Part shown: positions 5,128 through 49,806 of the stretch, piece after piece | Numbering within the stretch: position 1 is the first letter of the stretch | Layout: every line of letters starts with the position of its first letter | IMG/VR virus record: IMGVR_UViG_3300031555_006030 | Source of the DNA: a virus | Direction: 5' to 3' (one strand) | DNA: 64,000 bases | Notes under the pieces: model-generated | Databases searched by the model: none | The model's input: the letters and a program-made list of their open reading frames with translations, nothing else | Told to the model about the DNA's origin: nothing | Program-made: the position numbers and the translations under genes

Positions 5128-6297
5128 ATGGAAAAAATAACCTTATCAGACATTCTGCCAGAAGAAGACCCAGATACCGAAGACTCGGCTCCTGAACAAG
5201 AGGCAGAAGTTATTGAGGAGAAATTACTCGAAGAAAATATTGAATCTACTATTAAGCTAGACTATAAATTAAAAACCTGCGAAGAGCGCGCCGACCTTGT
5301 TAATAAGATCGTGGCGCAAACCCCTAAGGAGAAATTAAGCAATCGCTATTTAGAGATTTTAGGTGATTACATAATGGGCGGCATTAGTAAAGAAGAAAAA
5401 AAGGCGCGCCTATACTTGACTGATAATCGCTTGATAACGATTAATAAGCGCGAAACTTCTTTTGAAGGATTGGCAGAAAAGTTTGAAAATGGCGAAGATG
5501 GAATTTATAATTTGATGGTAAATGATAAAAATGTTTTACTTACACCTAAAATTGGAATTACAGATGAAGATATTAACACAATTCCTGGATTAAAAGAGCT
5601 TAAAATTCAAATGCAAGCCACTGAAGAGGCGATAAAAGCGGCAACTGGTAAAAAAAAGTATTTACTTAAAAAGTAGTTGATTGAAATGCGCCGTGATTAG
5701 TATGCGCTTAAGAATTCTGCTAAGCCTCCTATGTATTTGGCGCCCACGCCGCATGGATTAAACAAAGTTGACCTCTCTGAGCATCGGTGGGTTGATTCAA
5801 ATGGAAATCCTCAAAGCGATGGGCTAATATCCTTCTTTAATCCAGTTCACATTTTGGCAATTTTAAGTAATTACAATGCGTTAAAGTTAGAGACCAATGG
5901 GCGCTATCAAAATGACTTTTATTATCTTATGGAAGATTTTGACTTACTCTTGAATAAAAGCCTTGAAAAATATCCCCATTTTTTAGATTTCTTAAAAATG
6001 AAATTTGATGGAAAGACTAGCGCAGAAATTCAAACCATGTTAAAAGAAAAATATAATATCTCTTATTCAATTTAGTATATATCTTCTTTATGGAGAACTA
6101 AAATTCCAAAAATAATTGCAGAGAAGGCGCAAAATGATTATTTAATATGGCATTATACCAATGTAGAAAAGGGCGTTTGGAAAAAGTGCTCTTGTTGTAA
6201 ACAGCTAAAACCTTCTAGCACACGTTTTTTTTCAAAAAATAACACCAGTAAAGATGGATTGTATAGCATTTGTAAAGAGTGCAGAAATAAAAAATAA
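5128..6297 (+). CDS. hypothetical protein with a C-terminal Cys4 zinc ribbon
   Basis: Three in-frame track ORFs (5128, 5731 and the tail) are joined by reading TAG as sense. Every codon across the gaps was checked, and the gene ends in TAA at 6295-6297. Three TAG codons. Confidence 0.5.
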
Positions 6298-6370
6298 ATA
6301 TCAATTTTAATGAAATGATATTGTTCTATTTTTACTTTCAATAGAATTAACTACGAAAGGAGAATAATAA

Positions 6371-7582
6371 ATGGCAAAATATCATTGTGATAAATGCAAT
6401 AAAGAATTAGAAGAAGTTAATTTTTATAAATATCGAGACGGTAGTTATGTAGAATTGTGTAAAAAATGTTTAACAATGCATGTGGATGTTTTTGATCCAA
6501 GTACTTTTACATGGCTATTAGAAAAACTCGATGTTCCTTATATTCCACAAGAATGGAATACGGTTATTGAAAAGAAAATGGCGAAAAAGCCTGATGCGCC
6601 AATTTCACATTCCGCTGTTTTTGGATCTTACTTATCGAAAACAAAACTAAAATAGTGGAAAGACTTTTATTGGGCAGATAATGAAAAAATATAGGAAATG
6701 TATTTTTAGCAAAGCGCCTAGGCGTCTGCGGAAAAAGCTGAACTTGATGCAATGTATCAAGAGCAATTTGAATCTGGCTAGATTTCTGAAGCATAGTATA
6801 AAACTCTTACATCCCCCAAAGCGCGTAACGATTAGATGATGAGTATGCTAGCGGCGCATGGCCCTTATCTAGGAGAAAATAATCCATATGATGAAACTCA
6901 ATTTCTTGATGATGCGGAGATTCCTGATCCTGCAGCACACATGACTCAAGAAGAAAAGATTACTTTTGCAATGAAGTGGGGTAAGTTTTATAAGCCAAGT
7001 GAATGGGTTGAACTTGAAACAGATTATCAAAAGATGAAGAAGTCTTTTGATATTTAGGACGCAGACTCTGAGAATACTTTAATCCTTTTGTGTAAAACGA
7101 ATTTAAAAGCAAATCAAGCTATTGATTGCGGAGATATTGAAGGATTCCAAAAATTGTCTAAAGTGTCTGAGTCATTACGTAAATCAGCAAAATTCACTGC
7201 GGCGCAAAATAAAGAGCAAAAAGGCGACTTTGTTGATTCTGTTGGAGAACTTATAGCTATATGTGAACGAGATGGCTTTATTCCACGTTTTGCAACAGAT
7301 ATTCCTCAGGATAAAGTTGATATGACTTTAAAAGATATGAATGAATATGTGCGAAAGTTAGTTACTCAAGATTTAGGATTTGGACAACAAATTGAGGACT
7401 CGTTGAAAAAGATTATGATTCAAAATGAAATGAATAAAGAAGCCGAACGCCGCCAAGAGGAAGAAGGAGAAGATTATGATCCTTATGCGCCTACGGAACT
7501 TGATGATGAAGATATTATTGAACACTATGATAATCTTCTAGAAATGAGAAAGAAAGACCGAGATCTCTTGGAGAAAGAGTGA
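6371..7582 (+). CDS. hypothetical protein with an N-terminal zinc ribbon (possibly a terminase small subunit or DNA-binding protein)
   Basis: ORFs at 6371, 6836 and 7088 are in one frame and are separated only by TAG codons (about seven). The gene ends in TGA and overlaps the terL ATG. Confidence 0.45.
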
Positions 7583-7586
7583 TATT

Positions 7587-8206
7587 ATGGCAGTTCAAGA
7601 TTTAATTAATCTCGCTCTTGAAGGGGGCTAGAAAAAGATTGGTATTTCTGAAGAGCGAATAAGAGTTTAGATTCCAATAATTCGTTAGTATGTAGCTTAT
7701 TGGCGTGAGTACCCAGATATGTTTGTAGAGTTTCTTTGTGGTTCTAATCCAGAGAACTTTTCACTATTCTTTTATTAGCGTCTTTTTTTGCGCGCAGTTA
7801 TGCGTCATAGATATGCTTATGCCACTTTCCCTCGTGCATATTCAAAGAGCTTCTTATCAGTACTTGTTTTAATGCTTAGATGCATACTTTATCCCGGTAG
7901 TCATTTATTCGTTACTACAGGCGGCAAAGAGTAGGCGGCGGGTATTGCTAAAGAAAAGTCAGATGAGCTTTGTAAGTTAATACCTGGTTTAAAAAATGAA
8001 CTAGATATGACAAGAGGTAAAACTAAAACTAGTAAAGATAATATTGAATTAATATTCAAAAATGGTTCAAAATTAGACATTATGGCTGCGCGCCAGTCCT
8101 CTCGTGGTAAACGTGCTACTGGTGGTTTAATGGAGGAATGTATTCTTATAGACTAGACCTTGTTGAATGAAGTAATAATCCCTAGATACTGGGGCGCAGC
8201 AGCGTG
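7587..8206 (+). CDS. terL: terminase large subunit, ATPase domain (exon 1; includes TAG codons)
   Basis: It has a deviant Walker A PRAYSKS and the pattern RGKRATGGLMEECILID (Arg finger and Walker B). The reading frame ends at TGA 8204-8206 and is followed by GC-rich non-coding RNA. Confidence 0.6.
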
Positions 8207-9293
8207 AGCTACTGTGGAAAACGGTGTGAACCTGTGATACAAGGGTGTGGATCTTCGGATCTGCTAACGGGGAACAGTCAAAAACCCCGTGCCAAGCTTC
8301 ACCGTATGGTGTTGAAGGTGTAGAGACTATCCGGGATGAGTGTACCGGTTAGGGTGGAATTGATCACCACTCGAAGCGCACCGCAACTAAAAATTTTGGT
8401 CAAATTTTGATAATATTGCTACTTTAAATTTTATATATTCATGAAAGGGAATAATCCCGGGATAGAATGTAAATCAAAAGGAGTAATATTATGTGGAAAA
8501 AATTTTATTTTGAAGGTGTTGAAACAGATTATAGTGTTTCAACAGAAGGGGTAGTAAGAAAAGACACAACAGACTATATTTTATCACAATCTTCTTAGCA
8601 GGATTATAAATTTGTAACTTTGCTTATAGCAGGAAAACAAAAAAGAATGAGAGTGCATAGAATGGTGGCTGAAACTTTTCTTGACAATCCAGAAAAGAAA
8701 CCTTATGTAAATCATATTAATGGTAATCGTGGAGATAATAATGTTGAGAATTTAGAATGGGTTACTCCCTCAGAAAATACTCAGCATGCTATAGAAACTG
8801 GTTTATTCATGTCCGGTAGGGCAAGACCAGTAATTCAATATAATCTTGACGGTGTGCAGATGGCAACCTTTGAAAGTGTCTCTGAGGCAGCTCGTCAAAC
8901 AGGCGGTTCACAAAGCAAAATCACAATGTGTTGCAGACGTCAAAGATAGACAGCTAATGATTACCAATGGAGATATTATGATGATATTCAAGATGTGACC
9001 AAAATTGAGAAAAAATTTATAACGGGCAAAAAGGTTGCTCAATGTGATGAAAATGGAAATATTTTGGCAATTTTTCCAAGTTTCAAAGAAGCGGCGAGAG
9101 CCGTAGATGGGACCTCTTCAGCCATTAGCAGAGTATGCAGTGGTATGAATATTCGTCACAAAGGTTATAAATGGAAATTAGTTGATGATATAGTCCAAGA
9201 AGACATCTAATAGATGTTTTCTTGACCATGAACGTAGACCGAAGACTTTCAGACGGCTCTCGTATAGAAGATGAGACTGTTAACAAATCGTAG
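8207..9293 (+). mobile_element. putative group I intron interrupting terL (boundaries approximate)
   Basis: It begins with a ~250-nt stretch of ~50% GC with stops in all frames and a GATCTTCGGATC tetraloop hairpin. An R-like GTAGAGACTATCC at 8320-8332 and an S-like GATATAGTCC at 9187-9196 can form P7 (GACUAU paired with AUAGUC). The HNH ORF lies between them. Confidence 0.5.
8490..9210 (+). CDS. HNH homing endonuclease (NUMOD4 N-terminus, HNH_3 core, two IENR/NUMOD-like C-terminal repeats)
   Basis: The sequence reads YSVSTEGVV...HRMVAETFL...VNHINGNRGDNNVENLEWVTPSENTQHA. The repeats FESVSEAARQTG and FPSFKEAARAVDG follow. Two in-frame TAG codons; the gene ends in TAA. Confidence 0.7.
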
Positions 9294-10373
9294 ATTTATG
9301 TGACTACCGCAGGATGGAAAAACAGCTTCGCATACGAGAAACTTATAGAACTTCTTATTCGTCAGATTATCTACCCTGATGAAGCAGTTGTTATGGGTGG
9401 AACTTGGCGCATTCCTGTTATGGAAAAATTATTGAAGAAAAGTTTTATTGAGGAATTAAAGCTTGATGGAACTTATAATGATGCATCTTTTAGCCGTGAA
9501 TATGAGTCAGAGTGGTCTGGAGATGCCGAAAATGCGTTTTTCTCTGCAGAAAAGTTTGATAAACATCGTCAATTATTACAGCCAGAATATGAATTCTCTG
9601 GCCGCACCTCTAAAAATGGTTATTATGTATTAGGAATTGACGTTGGCCGTTTTAAATGCACTACAGAGGTATGTGTATTTAAAGTTACTCCATAGATATA
9701 GGGCGCTGCACATAAATCTTTAGTTAATCTCTATTCTTATGAAGCAGAGGACTTTGAAGCGCAAGCTATTAAAATTAAGAAGTTATTTTATAAATACAAG
9801 GCGCGTATTGCGGCAATAGACGCGAATGGTCTTGGCGCAGGTCTAATTGACTTTATGACAAAAGGTCAAGAAGATCCAGAAACAGGAGAATATTTACCTC
9901 CTTTTGGAGTTGAAGGCGGAACCTCAGACGAGTTTAATGAATAGTATAAGAAAATTAAGGGTCCCGGTGTTGAGGAAAATGCTATGTATTTAATTAAAGC
10001 TAATGCGCCTATTAATACAGAAGCACATACTTATGTTCAAACTCAATTAGTTGGTGGTAAAATTAATTTATTAATAGATGAAACTTAGGCTAAAACTAAA
10101 TTGATGACAACTAAGATGGGATAGGAAATGGATGCGGCCAAGCGCGCAGAGTATCTAAAACCTTTTACTTTAACCACCATCTTGCGCGAGCAATTATTAA
10201 ATTTAGTAGAAGACAACGAAGGTGTTAATATTATTCTTAAGTAGTCTTCAAGAAGTATTCCCAAAGATAAATTTTCTGCTTTTGAATATGGTTTATATTA
10301 TATTAAACAAGAGGAAGATCGTAGTAGAAAAAGAAAGAAAAGAAACATATCTGAAATGATGTTCTTCTCGTAA
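9294..10373 (+). CDS. terL: terminase large subunit, nuclease domain (exon 2)
   Basis: IYVTTAGWKNSFAY matches the motif III consensus (iiSTPnG.NhFY). YVLGIDVGR marks the start of the RNase-H-like nuclease domain. It is in frame with ORF 9300, spans several TAG codons and ends in TAA at 10371. Confidence 0.6.
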
Positions 10374-10445: not shown

Positions 10446-10802
10446 GTGAAAGCAAGTCGCGGAGAGATTAAAATTTGTGATATTTTAACTGAAGCGGGTG
10501 TCTCTTTTACTGAAGAATATTCATTTCCAGATCTTGTTGGACATACTAAAACCCCTTTGCGTTTTGATTTTGCGGTTTTAGATGATGATGGAGAAGTTGA
10601 TTTTTTAATTGAATATCAAGGTATCCAACATTATGAGCCCAAGTCTAAATTTGGCGGTGTAGCAGGTTTACGCCAATAGCAATACTATGATATGTTAAAA
10701 AGGGAATATTGTAAAAAACACAATATTCCCTTGGTTTTAATTCCTTACTATGACGAAGGAAGAATAAACTATGACTATATTTTTAAGGCTGCTGGTTATT
10801 GA
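10446..10802 (+). CDS. small PD-(D/E)xK/DUF559-like nuclease-fold protein
   Basis: The pattern DFAVLDDDGEVDFLIEYQGIQHY is present. One TAG codon; ends in TGA. Confidence 0.4.
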
Positions 10803-10844: not shown

Positions 10845-12455
10845 GTGCTTAACTTGAATAACAGAATACAAGAGATTCATTCTAAAGGTTTTGATATAAG
10901 CACCCCAAGAAGTGCTCCAGTAGATGGAAATGTTATTCCAGAGTTGGACTATTCAAAGATAAAAGTAGGAATTAGACATCTTGACGACGCAGTCGTTAAT
11001 TTGGGTAATTATAAGAAACTTGATCCTCGTATGACAAAAGAGCGTATTTAGCAGGCTATTGCTAGAGGCGATATAGAGTTTATGAGAGAGGCTTCTGAGT
11101 TCTACTTTAAAGTAAGTGGTATTTATTCTAGACTTTGTAAACACCTTGCTAATTTTTATAGATACGACTGGTTCATTATTCCTTATGCTACTTCAAATAA
11201 AGTTACTCCAGATAAGATTATTGAAGGTTTTGATAAAAATAGTGCTTATCTCGATGCTTTTGGCGTAAAAGAGTATTTTGGCGAAGTGGCATTAAAAATA
11301 ATGCGCCAAGGGTGTTATTACGGATATATTATTGAGGATACAGATACTGCGCAAGTGCAAGAGCTTTTGCCAAGATACTGTAGATCAAGATATAGCGTAA
11401 AGGGACGTCCGGCAGTAGAGTTTAACATGAAGTTTTTTGATGACTTCTATAAAGATAAAGATCAGCGCCTTCGTATCTTAAAAATGTTTCCACGAGATTT
11501 TCAAAAAGGATATACTGCTTATATTAATGGATAGTTAATTCCAGACTTTCCTGGAGATACTGCGGGATGGTATTTGCTCGACCCAGAGCATACTATGAAA
11601 TTTAATATTAATGGCGAAGATTATCCTCCTTTTATTTCGGTTATTCCACATATTATTGATTTGGATGCCGCTCAAGAGTTGGATAGAAAGAAAATGGCTC
11701 AAAAGCTTCTCAAAATCATTATTTAGAAAATGCCATTAGATAAAAATGGCGATTTGATATTTGATGTTGATGAAGCACAACAGCTTCATAATAATGCTGT
11801 TAGAATGTTAGGTAAGGCTATTGGTATTGATGTATTAACAACTTTTGCAGAGGTAGAAGTTGCTGATATGGCAGATAAAAATACTGCTACTACTATTGAT
11901 GAATTAGAAAAGGTTGAGAGAACCGTTTATAATGAATCTGGTACTGCACAAAATTTATTTAATACCGATGGTAATATCGCATTAGAAAAGAGCATTCTTG
12001 ATGATGAAGCGAATATGTATAACCTTCTTCTTCAATTTTAGTCATTTTTAAATTATATTATCAAACCTTTGAATAAAAATCCAAAAAAGTTATATTATAA
12101 AGTTGAAATACTTCCTACAACAATTTATAATTATAAAGATATGTCAAAAATTTATAGAGAACAAAGCGCGCAAGGCGGCTCTAAGCTGCTTGCTAGCATT
12201 GCTTTAGGACAATCTCAATCGGCAGTTTTAGCAACTGCAAAGTTTGAAAACGAGGTTCTTGACATTTCTAGTCTCTTCCAATCTAAGCAACAAAAAGAAG
12301 AGGCAAAAGCAAAAATTCAAAATAGCAACAAACCTGCTGAAAATAATGAAAACAAGTAGGAAGAAGTTGTTGAAAAAAAGAAAGTCGGCAGACAAGAAAA
12401 GCCTGATGATCAAAAAAGCGAAAAAACAATTCGCAATAAAGAAGCTATGAGCTAA
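10845..12455 (+). CDS. portal protein (SPP1 gp6-like)
   Basis: Four in-frame track segments (10845, 11082, 11730, 12069) are separated only by TAG. YSRLCKHLANFYRYDWFIIP is a portal-like segment. TTG start; ends in TAA. Confidence 0.75.
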
Positions 12456-12472: not shown

Positions 12473-13894
12473 ATGCATAAATCAGTTGCTACGATAAGCT
12501 CTCCTGAGTTTATCAATTTACAACCCCTTGATATCAATCCACTTATGAGCGCCTGTGAGATTAAGGTCTTATATGTCGGTGAAAATCGAAACAGATCCTA
12601 TATTACCAAAGATGTCGCAACGGAAATGGCGAAGACATTACGCGGCGCGCCCATTGTTGGTTATTATAAGGAAGAAAAAGAAGACTTTAGAGACCATGGC
12701 CGTGAAGTTATTATTGATGACGAGGGCATTAAATTTAACTGCAAAACCGTTCCTTATGGTTTTGTAGCTCCAGACGCAAAGGTATGGTTTAAAGAATTTG
12801 AAGATACCAATGATTTTGGAGAAACTATTTTGAGAGAGTATCTAATGACTACTGGATATTTGTGGACCGGTCAATTTGAAGAGTGTAAGTCCGCCGTTGA
12901 GAGTGATGGCAAGCCGCAATCAATGGAATTGGATGAAGATACCTTACAAGGGCACTGGGAAACCAATACTCGTGGCATGGATTTCTTTATTATAAATGAC
13001 GCAATTTTTTCAAAACTTTGCATTTTGGGCGATGACATTGAGCCTTGTTTCGAAGGCGCTAGTGTTACTGCGCCAAATGTTAGTGCGTCTTTTACAAAGG
13101 TAGACGATACCTTTAGACAAACATTATTTACTATGATGCAGGAACTTCAAACTGCATTACAAGGAGGTCAGCAAATGAACAACGATGTTGTTGAAAATGT
13201 TGTTGTCGAGGAGCCTGTAGTTGAGTTTAGCGCTGAGCCTGAGTTTGAGCCGGTTGTTGAACCTAGCTTTGAGCCAGAGCCTGAGACACCAGCAGAACCT
13301 TCTTTTGCTGCATCACAAGAGCCAGTTGTTGAAGATGCGCCAGTCGTTGCTGAAGAGCCTGTGACTGAGCCTGTTGTGGATGAACCTGTAGTTGAGCCAG
13401 TTGCAGATCCAGAACCTGCGGCTGAACCTACTCCTATGGATCCTGAACCGGCGTCCGCGCCTTCTATAGAGGAGCAGTTTACTGCGCTTCAAGCAGAGTA
13501 TGCAGATCTTCAGAGTAGATTCTCTACTCTTGAGTCTGTCCACAATGATCTTCAATCTAGATTCTCAACTCTTGAAACTGCGCATGCAGAACTTGTTGAA
13601 TTTAAAAGACTAAGTGACGATGCAAAGAAAGATGAAATGATTGGAAAATTCTACATGCTTAGCGATGATGATAAGGCAGATATTATTTCAAACAAAGCTA
13701 ATTACACTGTAGAAGAAATTGAAGAAAAACTTTCTGTAATTTGTTTCAGAAAAAAGGTCAATTTTGAATTAGAGGATAACTCTAAAATTAATAATAAAAT
13801 AGAGCAACCAGCTGTGACATTTAATGTGTCCGACCTTGGCGTTGCTTCTAAGCCCGACTGGTTAAAAGCAGTCGATAATGCGAAAAATCAATAA
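12473..13894 (+). CDS. scaffolding protein (acidic; EPVV and LQSRFSTLE repeats)
   Basis: A 473-aa uninterrupted ORF between portal and capsid, with a coiled-coil/acidic repeat region and no TAG codons. Confidence 0.55.
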   Translation: MHKSVATISSPEFINLQPLDINPLMSACEIKVLYVGENRNRSYITKDVATEMAKTLRGAPIVGYYKEEKEDFRDHGREVIIDDEGIKFNCKTVPYGFVAPDAKVWFKEFEDTNDFGETILREYLMTTGYLWTGQFEECKSAVESDGKPQSMELDEDTLQGHWETNTRGMDFFIINDAIFSKLCILGDDIEPCFEGASVTAPNVSASFTKVDDTFRQTLFTMMQELQTALQGGQQMNNDVVENVVVEEPVVEFSAEPEFEPVVEPSFEPEPETPAEPSFAASQEPVVEDAPVVAEEPVTEPVVDEPVVEPVADPEPAAEPTPMDPEPASAPSIEEQFTALQAEYADLQSRFSTLESVHNDLQSRFSTLETAHAELVEFKRLSDDAKKDEMIGKFYMLSDDDKADIISNKANYTVEEIEEKLSVICFRKKVNFELEDNSKINNKIEQPAVTFNVSDLGVASKPDWLKAVDNAKNQ

Positions 13895-13914
13895 TTTTAA
13901 GGAGGACATATAGC

Positions 13915-14436
13915 ATGGCTACTACTATTAAGCGTATTGGATTTGGTCAGGTTGAGCCTAATCATTTATCCGCTCAAAGAAATGGTCAAGTTTACGCACA
14001 ACTTCCTTGTAATAAGGATATCGCTATTCTTGAGAATGGTCAGTTCGTAAAGTATGACTATAAAACTGGCGAAGTTAACTTCACAGGCGCCGGCGAGTGG
14101 ATGCTCGTTATGAATGAAGTTAAAATTTATGATGCAAGAGAGTCTTATAAAGATTTTGCTCTTGTAAAGACAAATTATGATGATGGAATTATGGTTCCTA
14201 GAGTTCTTGCAACTCATGTTGGAGATATTTACACTACAAACTGCCTTGAGAAGGGAAATACTTCTGGTAAGGCTGAACTTGTTGGTACTGAGGAAATTGA
14301 TGTTGGAACCGAGCTTAAGATTAACGCTCAAGGTTTCCTTTCTACCGAAGGTACTAGCGATATTGTATTCCAAGTTGTAAAAGTTTATACAATGCCTGAT
14401 GGCCAACAAGGCATCAAGGTTATGCGTATTCAATAA
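13915..14436 (+). CDS. hypothetical head protein (possibly decoration)
   Basis: 173-aa ORF with no TAG, located between the scaffold and capsid genes. Confidence 0.4.
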   Translation: MATTIKRIGFGQVEPNHLSAQRNGQVYAQLPCNKDIAILENGQFVKYDYKTGEVNFTGAGEWMLVMNEVKIYDARESYKDFALVKTNYDDGIMVPRVLATHVGDIYTTNCLEKGNTSGKAELVGTEEIDVGTELKINAQGFLSTEGTSDIVFQVVKVYTMPDGQQGIKVMRIQ

Positions 14437-14456
14437 TAAAAGGGAGGGAAATAGTA

Positions 14457-15494
14457 ATGGCATTAAATAGAGAAGATTTACGTACATTAGCAATGCAGAC
14501 AGCAGGCGCTAATCCTTCTGCTCCCGTTGCATACTCGTTTAGCGGCACTAATTATAGTTATGCAGATTTAAACCAAGCTCTTCGTAATGAGTTAAAAGAG
14601 CTTGTTGGTTCATATGCTCTTTGGAGAGAAAATCATAATGTTGTGTTTGCACTTATGGAAGAAATTATCACAGATAAACTTCCTGCCAAGGTTATGCAAC
14701 AATATGGCGCCTTCGCTGAAATTAAAACTTATAAACAGGGTGAAAAGCCTATCTTTACTCAAAAGATTACTGAGGCTTCTCGTAGACGTGCAAAGCAATT
14801 CGTAACCAAGGTTGGTTCTGCTGGTCGTTATGAAGTTTTCAAGCTTGATGGTCGTAGCTACGAAGTAACTACATCGGCTATCGGTGCAGCTTGTCAAATC
14901 GCTATTGAGGAATTCCTTGATGGACGCGTTGATATGGCTACCCTTATCGACATTATTATGGAGGGTATGGATGACAAGATTTATCTTGAAATCGCTAATG
15001 CTCTTATCGCAACTGTTGAGACAATTCAGACTGCGAATAAGTTTAAGACTGATAAGTTTGATGAAGGTGAAATGGATGCGCTTCTTGCAGTTGCCGATTC
15101 TTATGGTAATGGCAGATCTACGATCTATTGCACATTTGAGTTTGCATCTACAATGATTCCTGCAGAGGGTTGGGTATCTGACACAATGAAGGATCAAATG
15201 TGGGCAAATGGTTACCTTGGTAATTACAAGGGACATCAAGTAATTGTTCTTCGTCAGTCTTTCACTGATGAAACAAATACAAAGAAAGTCATTGATCCTG
15301 CTTATGCTTGGATTATTCCTGGCGGAGCTGAAAAGCCTGTTAAGATTGCCTTTGAAGGTGATACTTGCATTAAGGAAGAGGATAATGATGACTGGTCTAA
15401 GGGCATTCACTTCTATAAGAAGGTTGGAGTTGCCGCTATCGTTAATAATGATATTTGTGTTTATCAAAACACATCTCTCACACTTGATAGATAA
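14457..15494 (+). CDS. major capsid protein
   Basis: 345-aa ORF in the expected position, followed by a strong terminator. No TAG. Confidence 0.65.
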   Translation: MALNREDLRTLAMQTAGANPSAPVAYSFSGTNYSYADLNQALRNELKELVGSYALWRENHNVVFALMEEIITDKLPAKVMQQYGAFAEIKTYKQGEKPIFTQKITEASRRRAKQFVTKVGSAGRYEVFKLDGRSYEVTTSAIGAACQIAIEEFLDGRVDMATLIDIIMEGMDDKIYLEIANALIATVETIQTANKFKTDKFDEGEMDALLAVADSYGNGRSTIYCTFEFASTMIPAEGWVSDTMKDQMWANGYLGNYKGHQVIVLRQSFTDETNTKKVIDPAYAWIIPGGAEKPVKIAFEGDTCIKEEDNDDWSKGIHFYKKVGVAAIVNNDICVYQNTSLTLDR

Positions 15495-15504
15495 TTAAGA
15501 TAAA

Positions 15505-15550
15505 GCAAGAGGGAAGAGAAGATATACTTCCCTTCCCTCTTAAATTTTTT
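15505..15550 (+). terminator. rho-independent terminator after the capsid gene
   Basis: An agagggaag...cttccctct stem is followed by TAAATTTTTTA. Confidence 0.5.
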
Positions 15551-15573
15551 AGGAGATAAAAGGAGTTAAAAAT

Positions 15574-17755: not shown

Positions 17756-17767
17756 GGAGATATTGCC

Positions 17768-18085
17768 ATGCTGTTAAAGTACGATTTTAATATTGATAAC
17801 AATGCAATTCAAGCAAATCTTAAGAGATTAACAAATCAAGTTTATAAATTGCTCCCAATAAGAGAAGAGGGCGCCGATTGGTAGAAACCTTTAACCACTA
17901 TCTTAGAGGAGTTGTCTGGAATGGACAGTTTGTTTTTCGGTCAACATACTGTTTTATTTACTTTAATCTGTAAGCTTGAAGGACTTTTTAATTTAACTGA
18001 AAAAAATGATTTCTTATTATATCGAGGAATTATTTTTGAATGTTTAAATCTATTAAGTGAGTTAAATAAAATATGTCAGGTTTAA
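17768..18085 (+). CDS. hypothetical head-tail joining protein
   Basis: ATG at 17768; one TAG; ends in TAA at 18083 and overlaps the next gene's start. Confidence 0.4.
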
Positions 18086-38263: not shown

Positions 38264-40270
38264 ATGGCGACAGTAAATAATAGTAGTGTTCGTATTATTA
38301 ATAAACATGATATTGAAGCTAAATGGTTGACAGTTTCTAACTTTATTCCAAAAGCAGGAGAAATCATTGTTTATGATATTGAGATAGATAAAGATGAATA
38401 GGTTTTAGATTTGACTGGGACAGGTAGAACGAAGCCTTATACTTACCCTCGATTTAAAATTGGTGATGGAAAGACGATCTTAAAGGACTTGCCCTTTTAG
38501 GGAGTTGGAAAATCGTATTCAGAAGGTGAAGTATTTAATGACATTAAAAATAATGAAGCCACTGGTAAATTTTCACATGCAGAGGGTTCTTAGACAAAAG
38601 CTTTAAGAGCTTATTCACATGCTGGAGGATACGATTCAAAAGTTAGCGGGAAAAAAATTGCAGTTGTTGATTATGAAGACTGGGTTGATACCGAAGATAT
38701 TCAAATTTTTAATGAAACAGAATAGGAAGATGGTAGTATATCTATAACTTTTCCAAACGATGAATATTTTTATTTTAGTACCCAATGTGCATTACAAGGA
38801 ATAAATATTAAAATTGGAGATAAAATTCGATATAATTGGACATATGGGGGACAAACTGGTGAAGGTAGTGGAGAAATAACAGATATTTGGAATAATTTTC
38901 TTTAGGTAAATGGTAGTTATATTTTTGCTATAGAAGAAGCGTAGGATTACACTTATTCTAATTGGCAAATAAGCAAAGCAATATATGGGCAAACAGAGGC
39001 GGGTATTGCAGCTTTTGTTCATGGAACCGGACTTTCTGCAACAGCAGATAATCAAGCTGTCTTTGGACAGTATAATGAAAATGACGCAGATGCGTTGTTT
39101 ATTGTGGGCAATGGAACGCAGTATGCATAGAAAAACGCCTTTGTTGTTGATAACGAAAAGGCTGTTCTTCATGGAGAATAGATTGCAACACTTAGTGATA
39201 TTCCAAAAGTTCCTACAAAGATTAGTGCATTTACAAATGATATTGGTTACACTAGTGTTGGTAAGCCCTATGGGGAAGCTGGTGGAGAGGTGTTTAACCA
39301 TACCACTTACAACAAAGCTTCAGGTACCTTTGCTCATGCAGAAGGATCTCAAACTCAAGCAACAAATGATAATACACATGCAGAAGGTTTTAAAACTATA
39401 GCGAGCGGTTTAAATGCACATGCTGAGGGTGGTGCAACAACTGCAAGTGGAGATAATTCTCATGCAGAAGGAAATCAAACTATTGCAAGTGGAAAATACG
39501 CTCATGCTGGTGGCGCAAACTCAGAAGCTAGTGGTAACTACTCATTTACACATGGTATTCGCTCTAAAGCAACTGGTAAAAATTCTTACGCCTTTGGCGC
39601 AGATGTTCAAGCTACAGCAGACCATGCGATGGCAATTGGTAATGAAACTTTGGCATCTGGAACGGAATCAATAGCTATCGGATATGCAACTGCTGCTTTT
39701 GGGAGACATTCTATTGCAAGTGGCGCATTAACAGTGGCAGAAGGAGAAAATTCAGTCGCAGGAGGTTTAGGAACCGGTATTGGTCCTGGTTATACCATTA
39801 AGGGAACGGGCTTAGGCCATTTTGTTATTTCTGAAACAGTAGCATGGGTAGCTGGAGATTTAGTAATAATTAGTCTTGTAAATGATTCTCGATTATTAGT
39901 GGCAAAAATTGAGAGCATTGTTCGTAGCGAAGATAATGTTTACACAGAAATAACAATGAATCCTCAATTCGAAAACATAGATATTGTTGGTGCTACTATT
40001 AAATTAGCATAGCCTTCTTTAGCTCAAAAAAATGCTTCTTTCGCACATGGTATTTCAGTACAGTCTACTGTAGATGCGCAAGCAGTATTTGGAAAATATA
40101 ATGAAGTTAATAATGATGCTTTATTTATTATTGGCAACGGAAGTAGCAACACTCCTTAGAACGCCTTTATTGTAACAACTTCAAACGAAGCTTATTTAAA
40201 TGGTTCACCCGTTCTGACCGTGGAGAATATTAGCACTTTCATTCCATCAGCAGAAGGAGGTAGTTTCTAA
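38264..40270 (+). CDS. tail fiber/receptor-binding protein paralog 3 (HAEG repeats; two NAF modules; about 11 TAG codons)
   Basis: In frame with ORF 39290. Its N-terminal 40 aa are paralogous to the gene at 32145 (NKHDIEA.WL...NFIP..GEII.YD); ends in TAA. Confidence 0.6.
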
Positions 40271-40798: not shown

Positions 40799-41303
40799 AT
40801 GTCAGAATTTTTACAATTGCTAGCTACATATGATATTGTAACAATTTTAACTATTGCTATTCTTGTAATAGTTGGTATTTACAAATTAATTGTATGGAGT
40901 AAGAAAACTTGGGCGCAGAGAGAAGTCTTTAAGAAAGAAAATATTGAAAAAGGTGTAGAAATTCAGCGCCAAAAAGATAAGGAACTTGAGGCTGAGCAAG
41001 AAGAAGAAACTCGTTTACAAAGACTTGAGTCAGCTATTGAAGCTCTTGCTCTTGTAAACGAAGAACAACAAAAACATATTGCTCTTTTAATTGAGTCTGA
41101 TTAGCTTAACATCAAAGCTTGGATTAAAGATCAGCATGAGAAATGGATGGCGCTTGGCGCAATAGATAGTCAAAGTTTAGACCTATTGGAATAGCGCTTC
41201 GGAATATACGAAGAAGAGGGCGGCAATAGCTGGGCGCGCCGCCTTATGGATGATATTAGAGGATTACCTTTAATTACCGTGGTTCCAGTTCATCCAGAAT
41301 AGT
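40799..41303 (+). CDS. membrane protein with an N-terminal transmembrane helix and coiled coil (holin-like or XhlA-like candidate)
   Basis: Hydrophobic segment TYDIVTILTIAILVIVGIYKLIV; in-frame TAG codons; ends in TGA. Confidence 0.35.
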
Positions 41304-41335
41304 GATAAATTAAGAGATAAAAGGAGTTGATAAAT

Positions 41336-43790
41336 ATGGCTGAAGATACGAGACTATATCCGCCAATTATTGATAATACCATTGGCGCCTTCGAGTTAAA
41401 GAAGGCGCAAGATGGTAAAACATATATGCCTATAAAACTTTATTTTTAGACAAACAAAGCAGATTATTCTTATAACTGTGTTCTTGTAAAAGTTGAATAT
41501 GATGGAAAAGCCGTTTTAAGAGATACGGTTATTTGTTTGCCTATTAACATAGTACGAGAACCTACTTTATTATTAAAAAATTTAGCTAATCAAGAATATT
41601 ATTCTGGAGAGCTTGATATAACCTATTTTAATAAGGATGACTTAAAAATTAATAAAGGATTTAATATTTATATAGCAGCGGTTTCTGAAAGCGTAGTTCC
41701 AGGTACAGATTATTCAAAAGTAGACATTGATAAAGTTATTAGTAATATTTCTACAACTGATTTTGTATTAAAGTCGGAATATTCTAATTATCACTCTGAG
41801 TGGAGTGCTGTGGCTGTTAAATATGCCATTCCTGAAATTAGCTTTCCTATGTTTGGAGGACTAACCAAAGAAGAGTTTTCTCAGGCGCCTAATGTAAAGT
41901 TTGACAATAAGCTTTTAGTGAACAATAATCCTTTTTTATATTTATATGATGCTTACCGTATTAAAGGAATGCTTGAGTTTAAAGATTTACCAACAGACAT
42001 TGCTTACGGTGACACAGAATTTTATGATTTTAGCGATCCAATAGGAGAAAATGATACTCTTCTGTGGTATTAGGTATAGCTTTTAGATGTTTCTAAAACA
42101 GGAAGTTCCTAGAAAATAGATTCAACTGCATCTAGAGAATACTTAGATTATTTTTACGATGCAACTGGTAGGGCTTTTGTATATGAGTTTAAAAAAGATT
42201 TAGAAACTATATACATGGAGAAGCTAAAAAAGGGCGGCGGCAATTTTGAAATAGTTGGAATATACTAGACTCGAAAAGGATATCTAGGTAGTTTTAACTA
42301 TACCTTAAAGACTTCGACTGTTGAAGTTCTATTGGGAGAAGATTCTTTTATTTAGCCAGATAAAAACCTTTGGCTAACCGAGTTTAAAGCAGAAAGCTTT
42401 CCTTCTCATGGGGGAATTTTCTTAAGTTGTAAGGCAACTAAAGTTTCTGAGTATGTTTCTCCAGTAGGTATATTTAGAATAGAACGAGCAATTGATAAGG
42501 ATGGCGCAGATGGAATGGCGCTATCTTATGAAACCATTTATGAAGAAACTGGTATGATTACTGGACAATATTTTGTATATTTGGATTAGAGCGCTGAAAG
42601 TGGAATCCCCTATAAGTATCGTATTTGTTTCTCTTATACGGCAGACAAACTTAATGGAACTGATGAAAATGGAAATCCTTTATATCAAACAGTTTCTTAT
42701 TTTGCGGTAGACAAAAATAAAAGAGGTACTATTACTATAGAAGAGTGGGAGCCAACAATATCAGACTTCTATTGCACTGATGATAAAGATCATATCATCT
42801 TAATAGAAGATATGTTTTTAACTTCTCAAGATATGACGCTGAAGATTCGTTTTGATCCTGCCTTAACTCAATATAAGAGAAACTATTAGGATATCATTAC
42901 TCCAACTTTAGGTGGCGCATATCCTTTTGTTAGAAGAAATGGCGCACAGTTGTATAAAACCTTTACTATTGGTGGATTAATTTCTTATCATGGAGACCTT
43001 AATGAACTTTCTTTAAGCAGTTCAGAAGAACGAATCAATGAAGAAAACTGGTTAAAAGAACCTTATTTATTTTATAATAAAAATACAGCTTCTAATTATG
43101 CAATTTCTTATAAAATGTTTTCGTAGTTAAGTCGTTATGAGCAAGAAAGAGTAAGAGAAAAACTGTTTAGAGAACAGGTTTTAGAATTTTTATATAAAGA
43201 TCAGCTTTTGCTATTTAAGTCATTCCAAGAAGGAAATTCTTTTATTCGATTGAGCAATATATCATTAACCTCTAAAAAAGAGCTTGATAGAAATATTTAT
43301 TCTTTTACTGCAACTGCAACTGAAGTTCAAGAAGCTAATGACGCCAATTACAGAAAGTTCTTTTCAAATCTAAAAGAAGATTTGACTTATGTTTTAACAC
43401 GCCTTTTTGTGAAAGCTTCAGCGTTTAATGGAGAAGCTGTTACTATTAGTAATGATGATTTAGTTGATTTAGATGAAAGTTACGGAGATGACTTTTCTCT
43501 TGTTACCGTATAGAGTGAGTTGCAATATGCAATTAATCCTGCGGCTAGCTTAACTAATAATGAGCACTGGACTTCTGAAATTAACCCAGATTTAACTTAT
43601 TATACAGAAGCTGGATAGAGGGTAAAACCAGAATCTTATAAATTAGAGGGAGAGTCTATTGAACGATATCGTTTTAGTTTGAGAAAAATGCCTCGTACTA
43701 GAACAGTAAATATAAAAACAACAACTTCTGAGTGTCATGGAACGGCTATTAATTTATATTATTAGCCATATACCTTTGATCTTAATTAAT
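41336..43790 (+). CDS. hypothetical large tail/baseplate protein (818 aa)
   Basis: ORFs 41537 and 43208 are in frame with the ATG at 41336; many TAG codons; ends in TAA. Confidence 0.45.
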
Positions 43791-43804: not shown

Positions 43805-46474
43805 ATGGCACATAGTAGATATGAATATTTGTCTAATCCAGTTATGCTAGATTATATCTCTAAACTTTAGCACCGAACTTAGTGGACTAGATTAATTATT
43901 TTAAATCGACAAGATTTGCCCCTTAAGGCAATCGAAGGGCGCGCCACTGGAGGTTCTATTACAATAAATAGTGCCTCCGCCGTAAGGCGCACAGGTTCTA
44001 TTACTCTTGTTACCGACTATGATAAAAGTACTAGAGCTGATACTGATGATCTTGATATTATGAATGAGGTCACAAATATAAAAACGCTTATCTCAATGAA
44101 TAAACGAGTTTAGGTTGAAATTGGTATAAAAAACACTGGAGGTCAGTATCCTGACTTTGATATTTTCTGGATACCCTTGGGTACTTTTGTCATTTCAAAT
44201 GCCTCGGTTTCTTATAATAATCAAGGTATCACAATAAGCTTGAAACTAAATGATAAAATGGCTCTTTTGAATGGAGAAGAAGGAGGCACTTTTTCTATTG
44301 AAATGACTCATTCTCCATTAGAAGATGGTCCAGTAAAATATAAAGACTTAATAAAGTCTCTAGTTTGTATCATGGGTGAGTTACCAGAATGGCAGGTAGT
44401 TATTGAAGATATTCCAGATACTACTGAATAGATTTTGACTTGGAATCCAACTATAGAGGTAAAAGGATTTGGACATAATGATGAATATGGAATAATTAAT
44501 GTTGATAAAAGTGGAGAGCCCCCTAATGTAGATATTATAGAAGGTTCGACAGAAATTGTAATAGACTCAGATAGAACAGACTTGCCTTATGGTTTAGAAA
44601 ATTATCTAAAAACAAAACTTCCTACTGATATATGGGTAATTTTTTTTAATAGCGGAACTGAATAGTGGGAGAACTTTAAAGCTTCTAACTATGAATATAA
44701 ACCTGTTACTTTTAATGATGGAATAATAAAACAATGTTATACTTTTCTAATAGACAAAGGCTGGCAACCAGAGAGGCGTTTTGTAAATAAAGTATGGTTT
44801 AGAGGGCTTGTTGACGAACCTATTACTGGGTTACCTTCATTGTATTTAAATACTAAAAACTCTGAAAATATTGAAGGAAATATACAAGTTGGGTTTTTAT
44901 CAACTGATAATGAGATAAGATAGAGTTACGATACTGTTTTTTGGCCCGGAGCTGTTGTAGGATATACGACTACTGATTTTACATATCCAACAGGTAGCGA
45001 ATTAACTTCATAGGTAGGAGAATCAATCTAGTCTGTTTTAGAGAAAATTAAAAATTCTCTAGGTAACTATGAATATTTCTTTGATGTGGATGGAGTATTT
45101 CATTTTCAAGAAATCAAAAACTACTTAAACGAAGGAAATACTTCAGATAATTGGGAAACAGCTTTAGTAGATAAGTATTTTCTAAAAACGAGAAAAAACA
45201 AAGCTGTATACTCATTTAAAAATAGTGAATTGATAACTTCATATTCTAATGATCCTTAGTATACCAATATTAAAAATGACTATGCTGTTTGGGGAGAGAC
45301 TAATGATTAGTAGTCTTCAATATATTATCATTTAAGACTTATGAAGGATTTAGACTAGGGCAAAAAAGAGTGGGGCGTATTTTATAAAGATAATTATTAT
45401 AGTCTTAGAGGATAGTTAGAAGAGATTGCACTTGTATCTAACGACCCAGACTTACAAGAGGGAACAACAGGGAGTGGCTCTACCAACAATGTGATATTTG
45501 GAACATGGCTATTAAATGATCAAATATCTTTTAAAGATACTTCTTTTTCCTCTAAAAATAATATATCAGCTATTGGAAAAACGGGATTAACATTATAGGT
45601 TAATAATGAAGAAAGTAAATTGTCTTTTTAGTCCGAAGATAATTCTACTGAAACTATTTATGAAAATGGCTCATGGAGTTTAAACTCAGGAAGAATATTG
45701 ACTTTTGTAGGAACAGTGGAACAGGATAGTGACTTTTACAACTGGCTTAGACAAAATGCAGTTCCTTGTTAGAAATATACTTTTTCTGACTGGCGCATTA
45801 ATTCTTTTTTAGAAGCTAAATTAAAACAGTAGAATAAGCAAACTTTAAAACCTCTTGAGTATGAACTTTTGAATTTTTTACCTTCTTCCTTTAGAATTGC
45901 AAATATAACAGGAAAAAAATGGGAGTTCGTAACAAAACCTTTTATAACCTACTTTATAGATGCTATTGATGTTAATAGTCCTAATCTTCCACCTGAGATT
46001 GATATAAAAAACTTTTCAATAGAAGATATTGGATAGCGTACAAAAACAATCTAGGATAAAGATATTGATTGTATTTTTGTAGATAATTATCCGCAATATC
46101 TATATTATCAAGAAGTAGCTCCTTTAACAAAAAAAACCCCAGTAGACTATTCAAATTTTGAAGTAGCTAATACAGTAAATGCTAACGAATAGCTATTGGG
46201 TGCAGACTTTTTTGAAAAATCTGTTACTACATCATTAGCTCAAAATCCTGCATATGACGCTTTGCGCATAAGTATCCATGAACATTTAAGTTATAATAAT
46301 AATATTAATATATAGACAATGCCTGTTTATCATCTTGATGTAAACTAGCGCATCGAAGTTGAAAATGATGAGGCTGATATTCATGGTGACTATATTATTA
46401 AGAGCATTACCATTCCACTTGGTTTGGATGGCATGATGAATATTTAGGCGCAAAAGGCAGTAGAGCGAATTTAA
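43805..46474 (+). CDS. hypothetical large tail/baseplate protein (889 aa; about 25 TAG codons)
   Basis: ORFs 43916, 44177 and 44435 are in frame. I walked every codon from 44666 to 46474 and found only TAG internal stops; ends in TAA. Confidence 0.5.
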
Positions 46475-47455: not shown

Positions 47456-48319
47456 ATGTTCAATTCAACAACTGGATACTCTTTATCCGACATCGCTGCT
47501 GTAACAGGTAGCAATAGAGGAAATGGTGGTTTCGGTGATGGCTTCGGCGAAAACGGATGGTGGATCATCCTTTTATTCCTCTTCACTGGATGGGGAAGAA
47601 ATGGCTGGGGTGGAAACGGTGGATCTAATGATGGAAACGGATACATGATCAACCCTTATTTCTGCGGCTCAGCTCCATGTGCAACTAAAGATGATGTTCG
47701 TGCAGCCATTGATCAGCAAACTCTCGTTTCTAAACTCGATAACCAGACCTATGGTTTGGCCGACAGTACCTATGCATTAAGCAATGCAATTACAAGTGGT
47801 TTCCATGGAGTAGACAACGCTATCTGTACTCTTGGTTACCAAAATCAGGCTGGTTTCACTGCTCTTGGTAATCAGTTAGCTAATTGTTGCTGCGATACTC
47901 GCGCCGCAATCGCTGACGTGAAAACTCAAGGTGTGATGAATACCAACGTACTCTCAAGCCAGCTCGCCGCTTGTTGCTGCGACCTTGAGAAATCTTCTAT
48001 GGAAGATCGTTTTGCCGCTCAAACCTATAACTGCAATACGCTTCAAGCTATTGACAAACTTGGCGACAGAATCATTGACTTTATGACTCAAGACAAGATC
48101 GCTTCTCTTACTGCAGAGAATCAGTCTCTTAAGTTCGCCGCTTCTCAGGCTGCTCAAAATGCGTTTATTACTGCAAACCAAGATGCGCAGACTGCAGAGC
48201 TTATTCGTAGACTTTCTACTCCTTGTCCCGTTCCAGCATATGTGGTTCCCAACCCTAACTGCTGCTACGACTATCAAGTAACTAGAAACTACGGTTGCGG
48301 AAGCTGCTCTAGCTTCTAA
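47456..48319 (+). CDS. Gly-rich membrane protein with a YjcZ-like N-terminus and a Cys-rich (CCCD) C-terminal domain
   Basis: The N-terminus reads GNGGFGDGFGENGWWIILLFLFTGWGRNGWGGNGG, followed by CCCD repeated twice and CCYDY...GCGSCSSF. No TAG. Confidence 0.5.
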   Translation: MFNSTTGYSLSDIAAVTGSNRGNGGFGDGFGENGWWIILLFLFTGWGRNGWGGNGGSNDGNGYMINPYFCGSAPCATKDDVRAAIDQQTLVSKLDNQTYGLADSTYALSNAITSGFHGVDNAICTLGYQNQAGFTALGNQLANCCCDTRAAIADVKTQGVMNTNVLSSQLAACCCDLEKSSMEDRFAAQTYNCNTLQAIDKLGDRIIDFMTQDKIASLTAENQSLKFAASQAAQNAFITANQDAQTAELIRRLSTPCPVPAYVVPNPNCCYDYQVTRNYGCGSCSSF

Positions 48320-48345
48320 TTAATTAAATGGAGGCTTAGATAAGA

Positions 48346-48765
48346 ATGGAATTAACAGCTAATGCTCTACAAACAGTAGAGGTAAATCAGAATGTTTTAT
48401 TTACTGATACTCCCGTATGTGGTAGCTGTAGCATACTCCATCGTGATGGCAGTGGTCAAGTGACTCTTCGTGGAATCACTAGCCAATGTCGCGCAAGATT
48501 TAAGGCTTTCTTCAGCGGGAATATTGCTATTCCCGCTGATGGAACTGTTGAGGCAATCTCACTTGCGCTTGCGATCAATGGAGAAGCTATTGCATCTACA
48601 ACAATGATTCAAACTCCTGCAGCAGTTGAAGAGTTTGCTAATGTGGCTAGCGCAGTGTACATTGATGTTCCTGCAAATTGTTGTGTAACAGTCAGTGTAA
48701 GAAACACAAGTGCTCAAGCTATTGATATTCAAAATGCAAATTTAATTATCGAAAGGGTGGCATAA
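48346..48765 (+). CDS. BclA C-terminal-domain-like (C1q/TNF-fold) protein
   Basis: The C-terminus ...PANCCVTVSVRNTS...NANLIIERVA resembles the ...SIIIEKVA ending of BclA. No TAG. Confidence 0.45.
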   Translation: MELTANALQTVEVNQNVLFTDTPVCGSCSILHRDGSGQVTLRGITSQCRARFKAFFSGNIAIPADGTVEAISLALAINGEAIASTTMIQTPAAVEEFANVASAVYIDVPANCCVTVSVRNTSAQAIDIQNANLIIERVA

Positions 48766-48784
48766 TATGGAAAAATTAAAGTAG

Positions 48785-49483
48785 ATGAAAGAGGCGCTTG
48801 TGGGTTGCGTTCAAGGCCAGATCTATGGTAACATGGAAAAGGTTGATGCGCAAGAATTGGGCGCCGCAGTGGATATGATTAAAGATCTTTCAGAAGCCAT
48901 TTACTATTGCACAATTACAGAAGCAATGGAAGAAGAGGGCGAAGGAAAAGAAGAAAAAGGCAAGCACGGAATGATGTATTATCCTCGCACTACTCCAATG
49001 TATCATATGCCTTACCCTATTGAAATGTATGATCCTCGTTATAGAGAGAGATATAACTCTGGCTCTATGTACGCGCAAAATTCTGGCGGAAATAGCGGCA
49101 GTGGCTCTTCTAATGGTGGTAACAATGGATCTAACTCTAATAGCGGCAATATGCGCGGATATCATGAAGGTATGATGCCGATGGAAGAACCATGGCGTCC
49201 TATGTATAATGATGGTTCTATGTATGCAATGTATGAACGCGGTGGAAATCGCAATTACATGGAAGGAATGATGCGCGATCCTAGAGAAGGAAGAAGCGGT
49301 GAACGCCGCAAGATGTATATGGAAGGTAAAGGAATGAAGGATAAAACTCATCAAATGAAAGAGCTTGAAACTTACATGACCGAGCTTTCTCAAGACTTAA
49401 CCGAAATGATTCAGGATGCTTCTCCTGAAGAAAAACAATTATTACAACAAAAGATTAGCACTCTCGCAACAAAAATTAAATAA
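48785..49483 (+). CDS. low-complexity Met/Tyr/Gly-rich protein (spore-coat-like composition)
   Basis: It contains MMYYPRTTPMYHMPYPIEMYDPRYRERY and MYAMYERGGNRNYMEGMM. No TAG. Confidence 0.45.
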   Translation: MKEALVGCVQGQIYGNMEKVDAQELGAAVDMIKDLSEAIYYCTITEAMEEEGEGKEEKGKHGMMYYPRTTPMYHMPYPIEMYDPRYRERYNSGSMYAQNSGGNSGSGSSNGGNNGSNSNSGNMRGYHEGMMPMEEPWRPMYNDGSMYAMYERGGNRNYMEGMMRDPREGRSGERRKMYMEGKGMKDKTHQMKELETYMTELSQDLTEMIQDASPEEKQLLQQKISTLATKIK

Positions 49484-49485
49484 TC

Positions 49486-49806
49486 ATGTTCACAATAAAC
49501 GGAGAACAATGGTGGATAGTCTTAGTAATGCCATACGACGTTGCACTTTTAATGCCGAACGGTGACTTTGCTATTGGGGCGTGTAATGACTCTACTAAGA
49601 CTATTTATATCAGCAATGAACTTCATGGTGAGGCATTTGAAAAAGTATTGTGTCATGAGCTAGTCCATGCCGCTATGTTTGCATATGATGTTAGGTTAGA
49701 GCACGATGAAGAGGAGTTGTTAGCGGAAATAATCGCTACTTTTGGCGAGGAAATAATAGATTTGACTGATATAATGTTCGAGAGAATAAGAAGAGGAAGA
49801 TATTAA
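49486..49806 (+). CDS. ImmA/IrrE-like (DUF955) HExxH metallopeptidase-domain protein
   Basis: TIYISNELHGEAFEKVLCHELVHAAM matches the family pattern. No TAG. Confidence 0.45.
   Translation: MFTINGEQWWIVLVMPYDVALLMPNGDFAIGACNDSTKTIYISNELHGEAFEKVLCHELVHAAMFAYDVRLEHDEEELLAEIIATFGEEIIDLTDIMFERIRRGRY

Follow-up and report, generated by a model that had tools for sequence, protein, structure and literature searches.

The question raised by the 64 kb stretch of viral DNA held as IMG/VR record IMGVR_UViG_3300031555_006030, referred to here as the window and used as the numbering frame for all coordinates (GC content, 35.7%), is how a phage can make its virion proteins from genes that are repeatedly interrupted by the stop codon TAG. 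The late, or virion, module concerned occupies positions 5128–49806 of the plus strand and comprises 34–35 genes with 197–198 in-frame TAG codons; under the standard code it breaks into more than 100 meaningless fragments, and translation table 15 is needed to annotate it. An initial annotation had proposed that this module is read in an alternative code, with TAG in frame throughout and probably decoded as glutamine (Gln). TAG is indeed a sense codon in the virion genes and not a stop, and comparison with related phages points to Gln as the residue inserted.

The primary evidence lies in the reading frames themselves. Stop-to-stop open reading frames (ORFs) of at least 150 amino acids (aa) on the plus strand total 15.9 kb under the standard code and 44.3 kb when TAG is read through, as compared with 18.9 kb and 29.5 kb in control read-throughs of TGA and TAA, and with TAG as sense the longest such ORF reaches 1894 codons instead of 485. 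A comparison of coding density under alternative codes, which had been suggested as a check, gives the same picture: when ORFs that start with ATG and are 80 aa or longer are counted, they cover 39.9% of positions 5128–49806 under code 11 and 94.2% with TAG as sense, against 40.1% with TGA and 48.4% with TAA as sense. The 34 plus-strand genes reconstructed in this way account for 41,877 of the 44,679 nt of the interval, and their 13,925 codons include 197 in-frame TAG and neither a TAA nor a TGA, while 590 and 1,595 TAA and TGA codons occur in the two other frames of these genes. A 35th gene that starts with GTG (10446–10802) contributes one extra TAG, for a total of 198. The count of 197 TAG against zero TAA or TGA, together with the jump in coverage, therefore makes the observation real and far above chance. 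Two refinements of the proposal are required, however. Although 26 of the 34 late genes carry TAG, the other eight, including those for the capsid and tail tube proteins, lack it; and although TAG is sense in the late module, it is also found in frame in two minus-strand genes outside of it, encoding a RuvC-like Holliday junction resolvase (49825–50361; 5–6 TAG) and a free-standing GIY-YIG/NUMOD homing endonuclease that lies upstream of nrdD (54766–55449; 1 TAG).

The proteins obtained by reading through TAG behave as intact family members. With X placed at the TAG positions, the stitched terminase, portal, tape-measure and tail proteins yield full-length matches to their families in profile searches. 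The tape measure gene (23820–29423), for which a product of about 1867 aa with about 50 TAG codons had been predicted, encodes exactly 1867 aa with 49 TAG codons (50 in the stop-to-stop ORF) and matches tape-measure PHROGs with an E-value of 2e-69. Alignments with relatives, including the standard-code contig L007 (IMG/VR contig 3300028591_000212), continue straight across the TAG positions rather than ending there. The fragmented appearance of the genes under the standard code could also be produced by a decayed, pseudogenized prophage or by an assembly or sequencing artifact, but the probability of either is negligible: the frames are interrupted by TAG alone (197 TAG against zero TAA or TGA), the proteins are conserved over their full length, the same TAG pattern recurs in many independent assemblies, and an independently assembled JGI contig of 5.9 kb, Ga0307249_10193239 from sample 3300029305, which overlaps the right end of the window and reaches 912 nt past it, is 100% identical to the window over 5,016 nt.

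The use of TAG as a terminator provides a second view of the code. The 34 late genes stop at TAA in 27 cases and at TGA in seven. The proposal that all genes end in TAA or TGA and never in TAG is circular as originally stated, because the ORFs were built that way, but a non-circular form of it holds for the genes that are free of TAG: all 14 of the small minus-strand genes at 130–4989, as well as the other TAG-free genes, end in TAA or TGA. In the standard-code L007, the portal gene and one small gene end in a true TAG. None of the window's genes, whether early or late, has a plausible TAG terminator. Sense TAG codons, for their part, are missing from the genes for dUTPase, NrdG, NrdD, guanylate kinase, DnaE and helicase and from the 14 small left-hand genes; within the minus-strand block of nucleotide-metabolism and replication genes that includes the former six (50650–63852; all ending in TAA or TGA), only the free-standing GIY-YIG gene carries an in-frame TAG. 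This distribution bears on the possibility that the host bacterium itself reads TAG as Gln and that the phage matches its host. Such a host would be compatible with the avoidance of TAG as a stop even in early genes, but not readily with the lack of sense TAG in the early and replication genes, which fits a need for readability in a standard-code cell. Moreover, close relatives differ in code, with L007 being standard, relatives bring their own suppressor tRNA, and published work finds standard-code hosts for such phages, so that a recoded host is extremely improbable.

To identify the residue at TAG, window proteins were aligned to ORFs of relatives that were delimited by TAA and TGA only, an empirical substitution profile was obtained for each amino acid, and the best profile was determined for the residues facing window TAG codons. 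The relatives compared were the IMG/VR loci L003, L004 and L005 (66–78% protein identity, recoded), L007 (42%) and the phage phAss-1 (35%). Gln is the maximum-likelihood residue in all five comparisons, with margins over the runner-up of 56, 31, 79, 29 and 9 log units, respectively. The standard code of L007 makes this contig the key control, and in it 25 of 60 aligned window TAG codons face Q, against a background Q frequency of 4.3%. At the codon level, the TAG/CAA/CAG counts opposite window TAG are 28/16/7 of 62 in the relative L124, 8/25/14 in the relative L127 and 0/22/8 in L007, and in the reverse direction the TAG codons of relatives face CAA and CAG of the window. If TAG is counted as Gln, the late proteins go from a low Gln content of 2.8% to a normal 4.2%, with minus-strand (mostly early) proteins at 3.5–3.9%, and TAG makes up 33% of the Gln codons in virion genes. 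These comparisons indicate that TAG very probably serves as a third Gln codon beside CAA and CAG.

The argument by which Gln was originally proposed, a comparison between GIY-YIG endonuclease paralogs, describes a real difference: the GIY-YIG ORF inserted in the DnaE gene reads YVG-CAA-TNN (Gln codon at 58835–58833) where the free-standing gene reads YIG-TAG-SKD (TAG at 55374–55372). It concerns a single site, however, which agrees with the statistics but adds little to them, and both genes are on the minus strand outside of positions 5128–49806. A relative shows YIG-TAG-AQN at the same position. Two GIY-YIG endonucleases were found rather than the three that had been claimed, the endonuclease within the terminase gene being of the HNH type, and of the four fiber paralogs claimed only three genes (starting at 32145, 34409 and 38264) are mutually similar. 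In an alignment of these genes, which are repetitive and about 30% identical and hence say little about the residue, one of 25 TAG positions faces Q. Database homologs of the terminase large subunit (TerL) show Q at the TAG positions, but their genes had already been called with TAG as Gln; these genes fail to give the stored protein under table 11, and their DNA was used instead. A public protein collection thus already holds proteins of this lineage translated with TAG as Gln.

It is very unlikely that TAG is sense but specifies another residue, such as Glu, Lys, Tyr, Leu, Ser, Trp or pyrrolysine. ARAGORN does label CUA tRNAs "tRNA-Pyl", although from the anticodon alone, Glu and Lys come next in frequency opposite TAG, and in the most distant comparison, with phAss-1, Lys is only about 9 log units behind. 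Gln nevertheless prevails in five of five comparisons, by 29–80 log units in the four closer ones, and TAG swaps with CAA and CAG like a synonymous codon. In addition, the CUA tRNAs of relatives resemble tRNA-Gln, and neither the window nor the inspected loci showed any pyl genes.

A Gln codon of this type would call for a tRNA with the anticodon CUA, and the search for one was made by a stepwise walk along related IMG/VR contigs that started from the helicase gene at the right end of the window. No tRNA was found in the first two steps, which in the closest contigs extend some 20 kb past the window's right end, but three related contigs each carry a single tRNA with the anticodon CTA (L044, 7792–7867; L045, 5953–6028; L047, 6886–6982), and Rfam confirms all three elements as tRNAs. 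Each is located 2–4 kb upstream of a GyrB-like gene, and in L044 and L045, for which ORFs are listed, it sits between an RNase H gene and the GyrB-like gene and is co-oriented with the replication genes. By synteny, the matching site in the phage studied here would be about 25–30 kb past the right end of the window. L045 and L003 belong to one contig of 130 kb, which has TAG-recoded late genes and a major capsid protein (MCP) 79% identical to that of the window. Direct alignment to the E. coli tRNA-Gln genes glnV and glnU shows that the L044 and L045 tRNAs share the D arm and the G73 discriminator with tRNA-Gln; their first acceptor-stem pair is mismatched (A1/A72 in L044 and U1/C72 in L045). 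Inspection of approximately 40 kb of the replication region in the closest relatives showed no tRNA besides this tRNA(CUA).

Further searches around these elements gave mostly negative results. BLAST of the suppressor tRNAs against E. coli genomes and phage records returned either no match or matches to the T arm only, an Rfam search for ribozymes beside the suppressor tRNAs of relatives matched only tRNAs, and neither the window nor the surroundings of the tRNA in relatives showed a gene for an aminoacyl-tRNA synthetase or a release factor. The variable region of the L047 tRNA, like that of one phAss-1 suppressor, is enlarged by an insertion of about 20 nt. L044 also holds a second tail-tube-like copy (3123–3977; 1 TAG) among replication and early genes, adjoining RNA ligase-like and sigma-70 family genes.

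A dedicated suppressor would be dispensable if TAG were merely a leaky stop, read by a near-cognate host tRNA so that the full-length proteins are minor products. The window lacks a tRNA gene, recoded phage genomes without suppressor tRNA genes are known (PMC10607447), and abundant proteins avoid TAG, all of which would accord with leakage. Leakage could give no useful amount of full-length product from a tape measure gene with 49 TAG codons, however, and TAG is never a real terminator in the window, while the closest long relatives encode a tRNA(CUA); read-through of this kind is accordingly highly unlikely.

Taken together, these features are consistent with the timing model put forward for recoded phages, in which standard-code early genes and a suppressor tRNA are expressed first and the late genes after them (Borges et al., bioRxiv 10.1101/2021.08.26.457843). 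In a host that would use the standard code, the early and replication genes could be translated at once because they are without TAG. The early region beyond the window would encode a Gln-type tRNA with the anticodon CUA and, as this tRNA accumulates and is charged with Gln, it would be expected to outcompete release factor 1 at UAG. The TAG-rich late genes, namely those for the terminase, portal, tape measure, fibers and baseplate, would then become translatable, as would the genes for the RuvC-like resolvase and the two TAG-containing homing endonucleases. The abundant virion proteins (capsid, scaffold-like, decoration-like and tail tube) would avoid TAG because suppression is likely slower than ordinary decoding. 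The absence of TAG from the early genes, its Gln-equivalent behavior in the late genes and the suppressor tRNA of relatives are direct observations; from them we infer that the phage would carry a tRNA(CUA) of its own, that this tRNA would be charged with Gln and compete with release factor 1, and that expression would proceed in the order given.

Several points weigh against this reading and have to be set beside it. The terms early and late were assigned by gene function and strand. Two genes (17141–17755 and 40799–41305) end in a TAG that is directly followed by TAA or TGA, and this terminal TAG may be a C-terminal Gln codon or a stop. In close relatives, Glu ranks second in frequency among the residues at TAG positions, and the residue incorporated may be a Gln/Glu mixture; many Firmicutes make Gln-tRNA indirectly, via glutamyl-tRNA synthetase (GluRS) and GatCAB. 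The Q seen at TAG positions in the TerL database homologs is not independent evidence, because those proteins were pre-translated with TAG as Gln, and the Gln assignment is drawn from comparisons between genes. Finally, no tRNA gene is present anywhere in the 64 kb window. Scans of viral and metagenome collections with exact 52-mers, aimed at the rest of the genome, gave no match, and a look-up by exact protein sequence yielded only the 5.9 kb JGI contig mentioned above, so that the suppressor tRNA is deduced from relatives.

Within the late module, the distribution of TAG follows a pattern of its own. A TAG-free island comprises the four head genes at 12473–16152, which encode a YonD-like protein, a 173-aa protein, the YonB-like MCP (14457–15494; no match in a search of solved structures) and a 192-aa protein, and is complemented by the TAG-free gene for the YomU_Tube-like tail tube protein (20466–21347). 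TAG accounts for none of the 50 Gln codons in the head island and tube gene, compared with 197 of the 539 in the remaining late genes (Fisher p = 6e-10). Four recoded relatives show this contrast as well (p = 2e-3 to 3e-8), and neither the capsid gene nor the tube gene contains TAG in any of the five genomes, the window and these four relatives. At the other extreme are the genes for low-copy proteins, in which the share of TAG among Gln codons is 46% for the tape measure, 56–59% for the baseplate-type proteins and 54% for the terminase. It is possible, although we consider it somewhat doubtful, that TAG serves as a dosage-setting codon besides its role as a timing gate, being absent from the proteins required in hundreds of copies (capsid, scaffold-like, decoration-like and tail tube) and dense in low-copy ones. 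If a single suppressor tRNA were limiting, the stoichiometry of the virion would be set during translation by the density of TAG, and two features provide a testable hint of such codon-tuned protein amounts: the lack of TAG in the capsid and tube genes and the presence of a single suppressor tRNA in the inspected regions of relatives. Separately, the last four plus-strand genes (47456–49806) are also TAG-poor, with two TAG among 37 Gln codons; they include a 287-aa Gly/Cys-rich protein with a hydrophobic N-terminal segment and a low-complexity protein rich in Met, Tyr, Gly and Asn, and the last of them encodes a SprT-like metallopeptidase.

The remainder of the late module reads as an ordered virion block. 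Its first gene (5128–6297; 3 TAG) matches a PHROG labeled 'sigma factor' (phrog_5767, E = 9e-44) and encodes a C-terminal zinc ribbon; this label is weak because the product has no Pfam match and no solved-structure match. It is followed by a gene for a YonG_N-like protein (6371–7582; 8 TAG), for which the Pfam name is taken from the L124 ortholog, and by the interrupted TerL gene. The small DUF2726-like gene at 10446–10802, the GTG-started gene mentioned above, has an ortholog in L007 that is the small gene ending in a true TAG. The portal gene (10845–12455; 5 TAG) has an uncertain start, at 10845, 10854 or 11031. Six genes of head-completion or connector type (16179–20427) contain one to nine TAG codons each. 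Downstream of the tape measure gene are a gene for a 722-aa tail protein without a family match (29845–32013; 16 TAG), the three paralogous fiber genes with SHAEG-type repeats (32145–34352, 34409–37942 and 38264–40270; 3, 3 and 10 TAG) and two genes for large tail or baseplate-type proteins (41336–43789 and 43805–46474; 12 and 23 TAG).

The minus-strand genes at the left end (about 14 at 130–4989, in standard code and including one for a class 3 lipase) are divergent from the late module that starts at 5128. The block at 1–5000 encodes small, mostly acidic products and reaches a GC content of 52% against 36% overall, and downstream of several of its genes there is a GC-rich hairpin with a T run. 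The window shows no clear lysis gene.

Two genes of the window are interrupted by intron-like insertions that are absent from relatives and whose removal leaves the reading frame intact. The TerL gene consists of exon 1 (7587–8183; 6 TAG) and exon 2 (9225–10373; 7 TAG), separated by a 1,041 nt insertion (8184–9224) that contains an HNH ORF (8491–9210; 2 TAG; HNH PHROG, E = 2e-48) and is missing from L003 and L005. Without the insertion, TerL is 581 aa, the same length as most of its best database homologs. The DnaE (DNA polymerase III alpha) gene, on the minus strand, has exons at 59106–61620 and 56534–57936 around a 1,169 nt insertion (57937–59105) that carries the GIY-YIG ORF 58047–58916, which has no TAG and encodes the motif YVGQTNN. 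The junctions read ...CCT at the end of exon 1, ...TTG at the end of the insertion and ACC at the start of exon 2 in TerL, and ...GGGGT, ...ACGTG and ATAGT, respectively, in DnaE. Phage group I introns with homing endonucleases are of a known kind. Like group I introns, in which the 5' exon ends in U and the intron in G, both insertions show these end nucleotides and contain an HNH or GIY-YIG ORF, and they may be removed by splicing. Group I introns also possess a conserved catalytic RNA core, however, and Rfam group I and group II models gave no match in the window at the gathering score or at E-values up to 10; this is weak negative evidence, because the embedded ORFs may hide the catalytic core (P3–P9). 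Recoded introns and homing endonucleases have been exemplified by the Agate phages (bioRxiv 10.1101/2021.08.26.457843).

The decoding of TAG as Gln and the clade in which it occurs here, the relatives of phAss-1, have already been published, and the window is a new, divergent member, representing about half of a tailed phage genome of approximately 130 kb that is related to phAss-1 and Enterococcus phage EF1. Current understanding is therefore left unchanged, although the TAG-free capsid and tube genes and the single suppressor tRNA might merit further work. The virion module resembles that of Bacillus phage SPbeta, with orthologs in relatives hitting the Pfam families YonG_N, YonD_N, YonB, YomW, YomV and YomU_Tube. 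The phages in which TAG changes its meaning in the course of infection thereby gain one more lineage, related to both SPbeta and phAss-1. The capsid protein is 62% identical to that of a 12 kb unannotated human fecal phage contig, 47% to that of phAss-1 (over 94% of its length) and 39% to those of the Enterococcus phages EF1, VRE9 and H1.

PhAss-1 was described by Babkin et al. (2023; PMC10607447) as reading TAG as Gln, with recoding in 41 ORFs and tRNA-Sup-CTA genes in three copies, and is filed by NCBI under 'Caudoviricetes code 15 clade'. Its proposed genus, Phassvirus, shares with the phage described here a genome of about 130–140 kb, the long tape measure gene expected for a siphovirus, TAG as Gln in the terminase, portal, tape measure and fiber genes, and a gene order in which a plus-strand virion block is followed by a minus-strand block of nrdD, nrdG and replication genes. 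The suppressor tRNA-CTA genes of phAss-1 are on the early strand, and those of the window's relatives are likewise in the early/replication region. The two differ in that phAss-1 has 36 tRNAs, including two suppressors beside nrdD, where the window has no tRNA and a GIY-YIG endonuclease instead, and the close relatives of the window have one tRNA(CUA) in the approximately 40 kb inspected. About 4,600 residues of window proteins translated with code 15 align with phAss-1 ORFs at 35% identity, and two window segments, of 5.7 kb and 5.1 kb, had no megablast match among 50,697 phage records, while the three described Phassvirus species share 80–86% identity (PMC10607447). To judge by these sequence identities, the phage falls outside Phassvirus, as a distant relative in another genus-level lineage. 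A related 106 kb contig (L127/L128, JAZKZW010000082.1), with a capsid protein 83% identical to that of the window, was binned into a metagenome-assembled genome named "Eubacteriales bacterium", and the predicted hosts of phAss-1 are Eubacteriales (PMC10607447); a host in this order is probable on this weak evidence.

Other phages that use code 15, including the crAss-like, Lak, Garnet and Amethyst phages, likewise have TAG mainly in structural and late genes and keep their replication genes compatible with the standard code, and they also have standard-code close relatives and recoded homing endonucleases, as is the case here (Borges et al., bioRxiv 10.1101/2021.08.26.457843). Their suppressor tRNA lies in the standard-code part of the genome, as does the tRNA(CUA) in relatives of the window. 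In crAss-like phages, the reading of TAG as Gln has proteomic support (Peters et al., 2022; PMC9523058). The crAss-like and Lak lineages differ from the lineage with the SPbeta-like virion module to which the window belongs, and the tail tube family that is preferentially recoded in crAss-like phages is, together with the capsid, TAG-free in the window.

The wider monophyletic phAss-1 group holds both recoded and standard-code genomes (PMC10607447), and the latter are represented among the closest points of comparison. The Enterococcus phages EF1, VRE9 and H1 (about 140 kb) use the standard code, as does L007, whose capsid protein is 55% identical to that of the window and whose TerL is a single 575-aa ORF without TAG. 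Both the EF1-type phages and L007 encode homologous terminase, portal, tube and tape measure proteins in the same order as in the window, with no in-frame TAG in the genes that align with its late genes. The new lineage is useful for studying the evolution of the code switch because such standard-code relatives sit so close to it.

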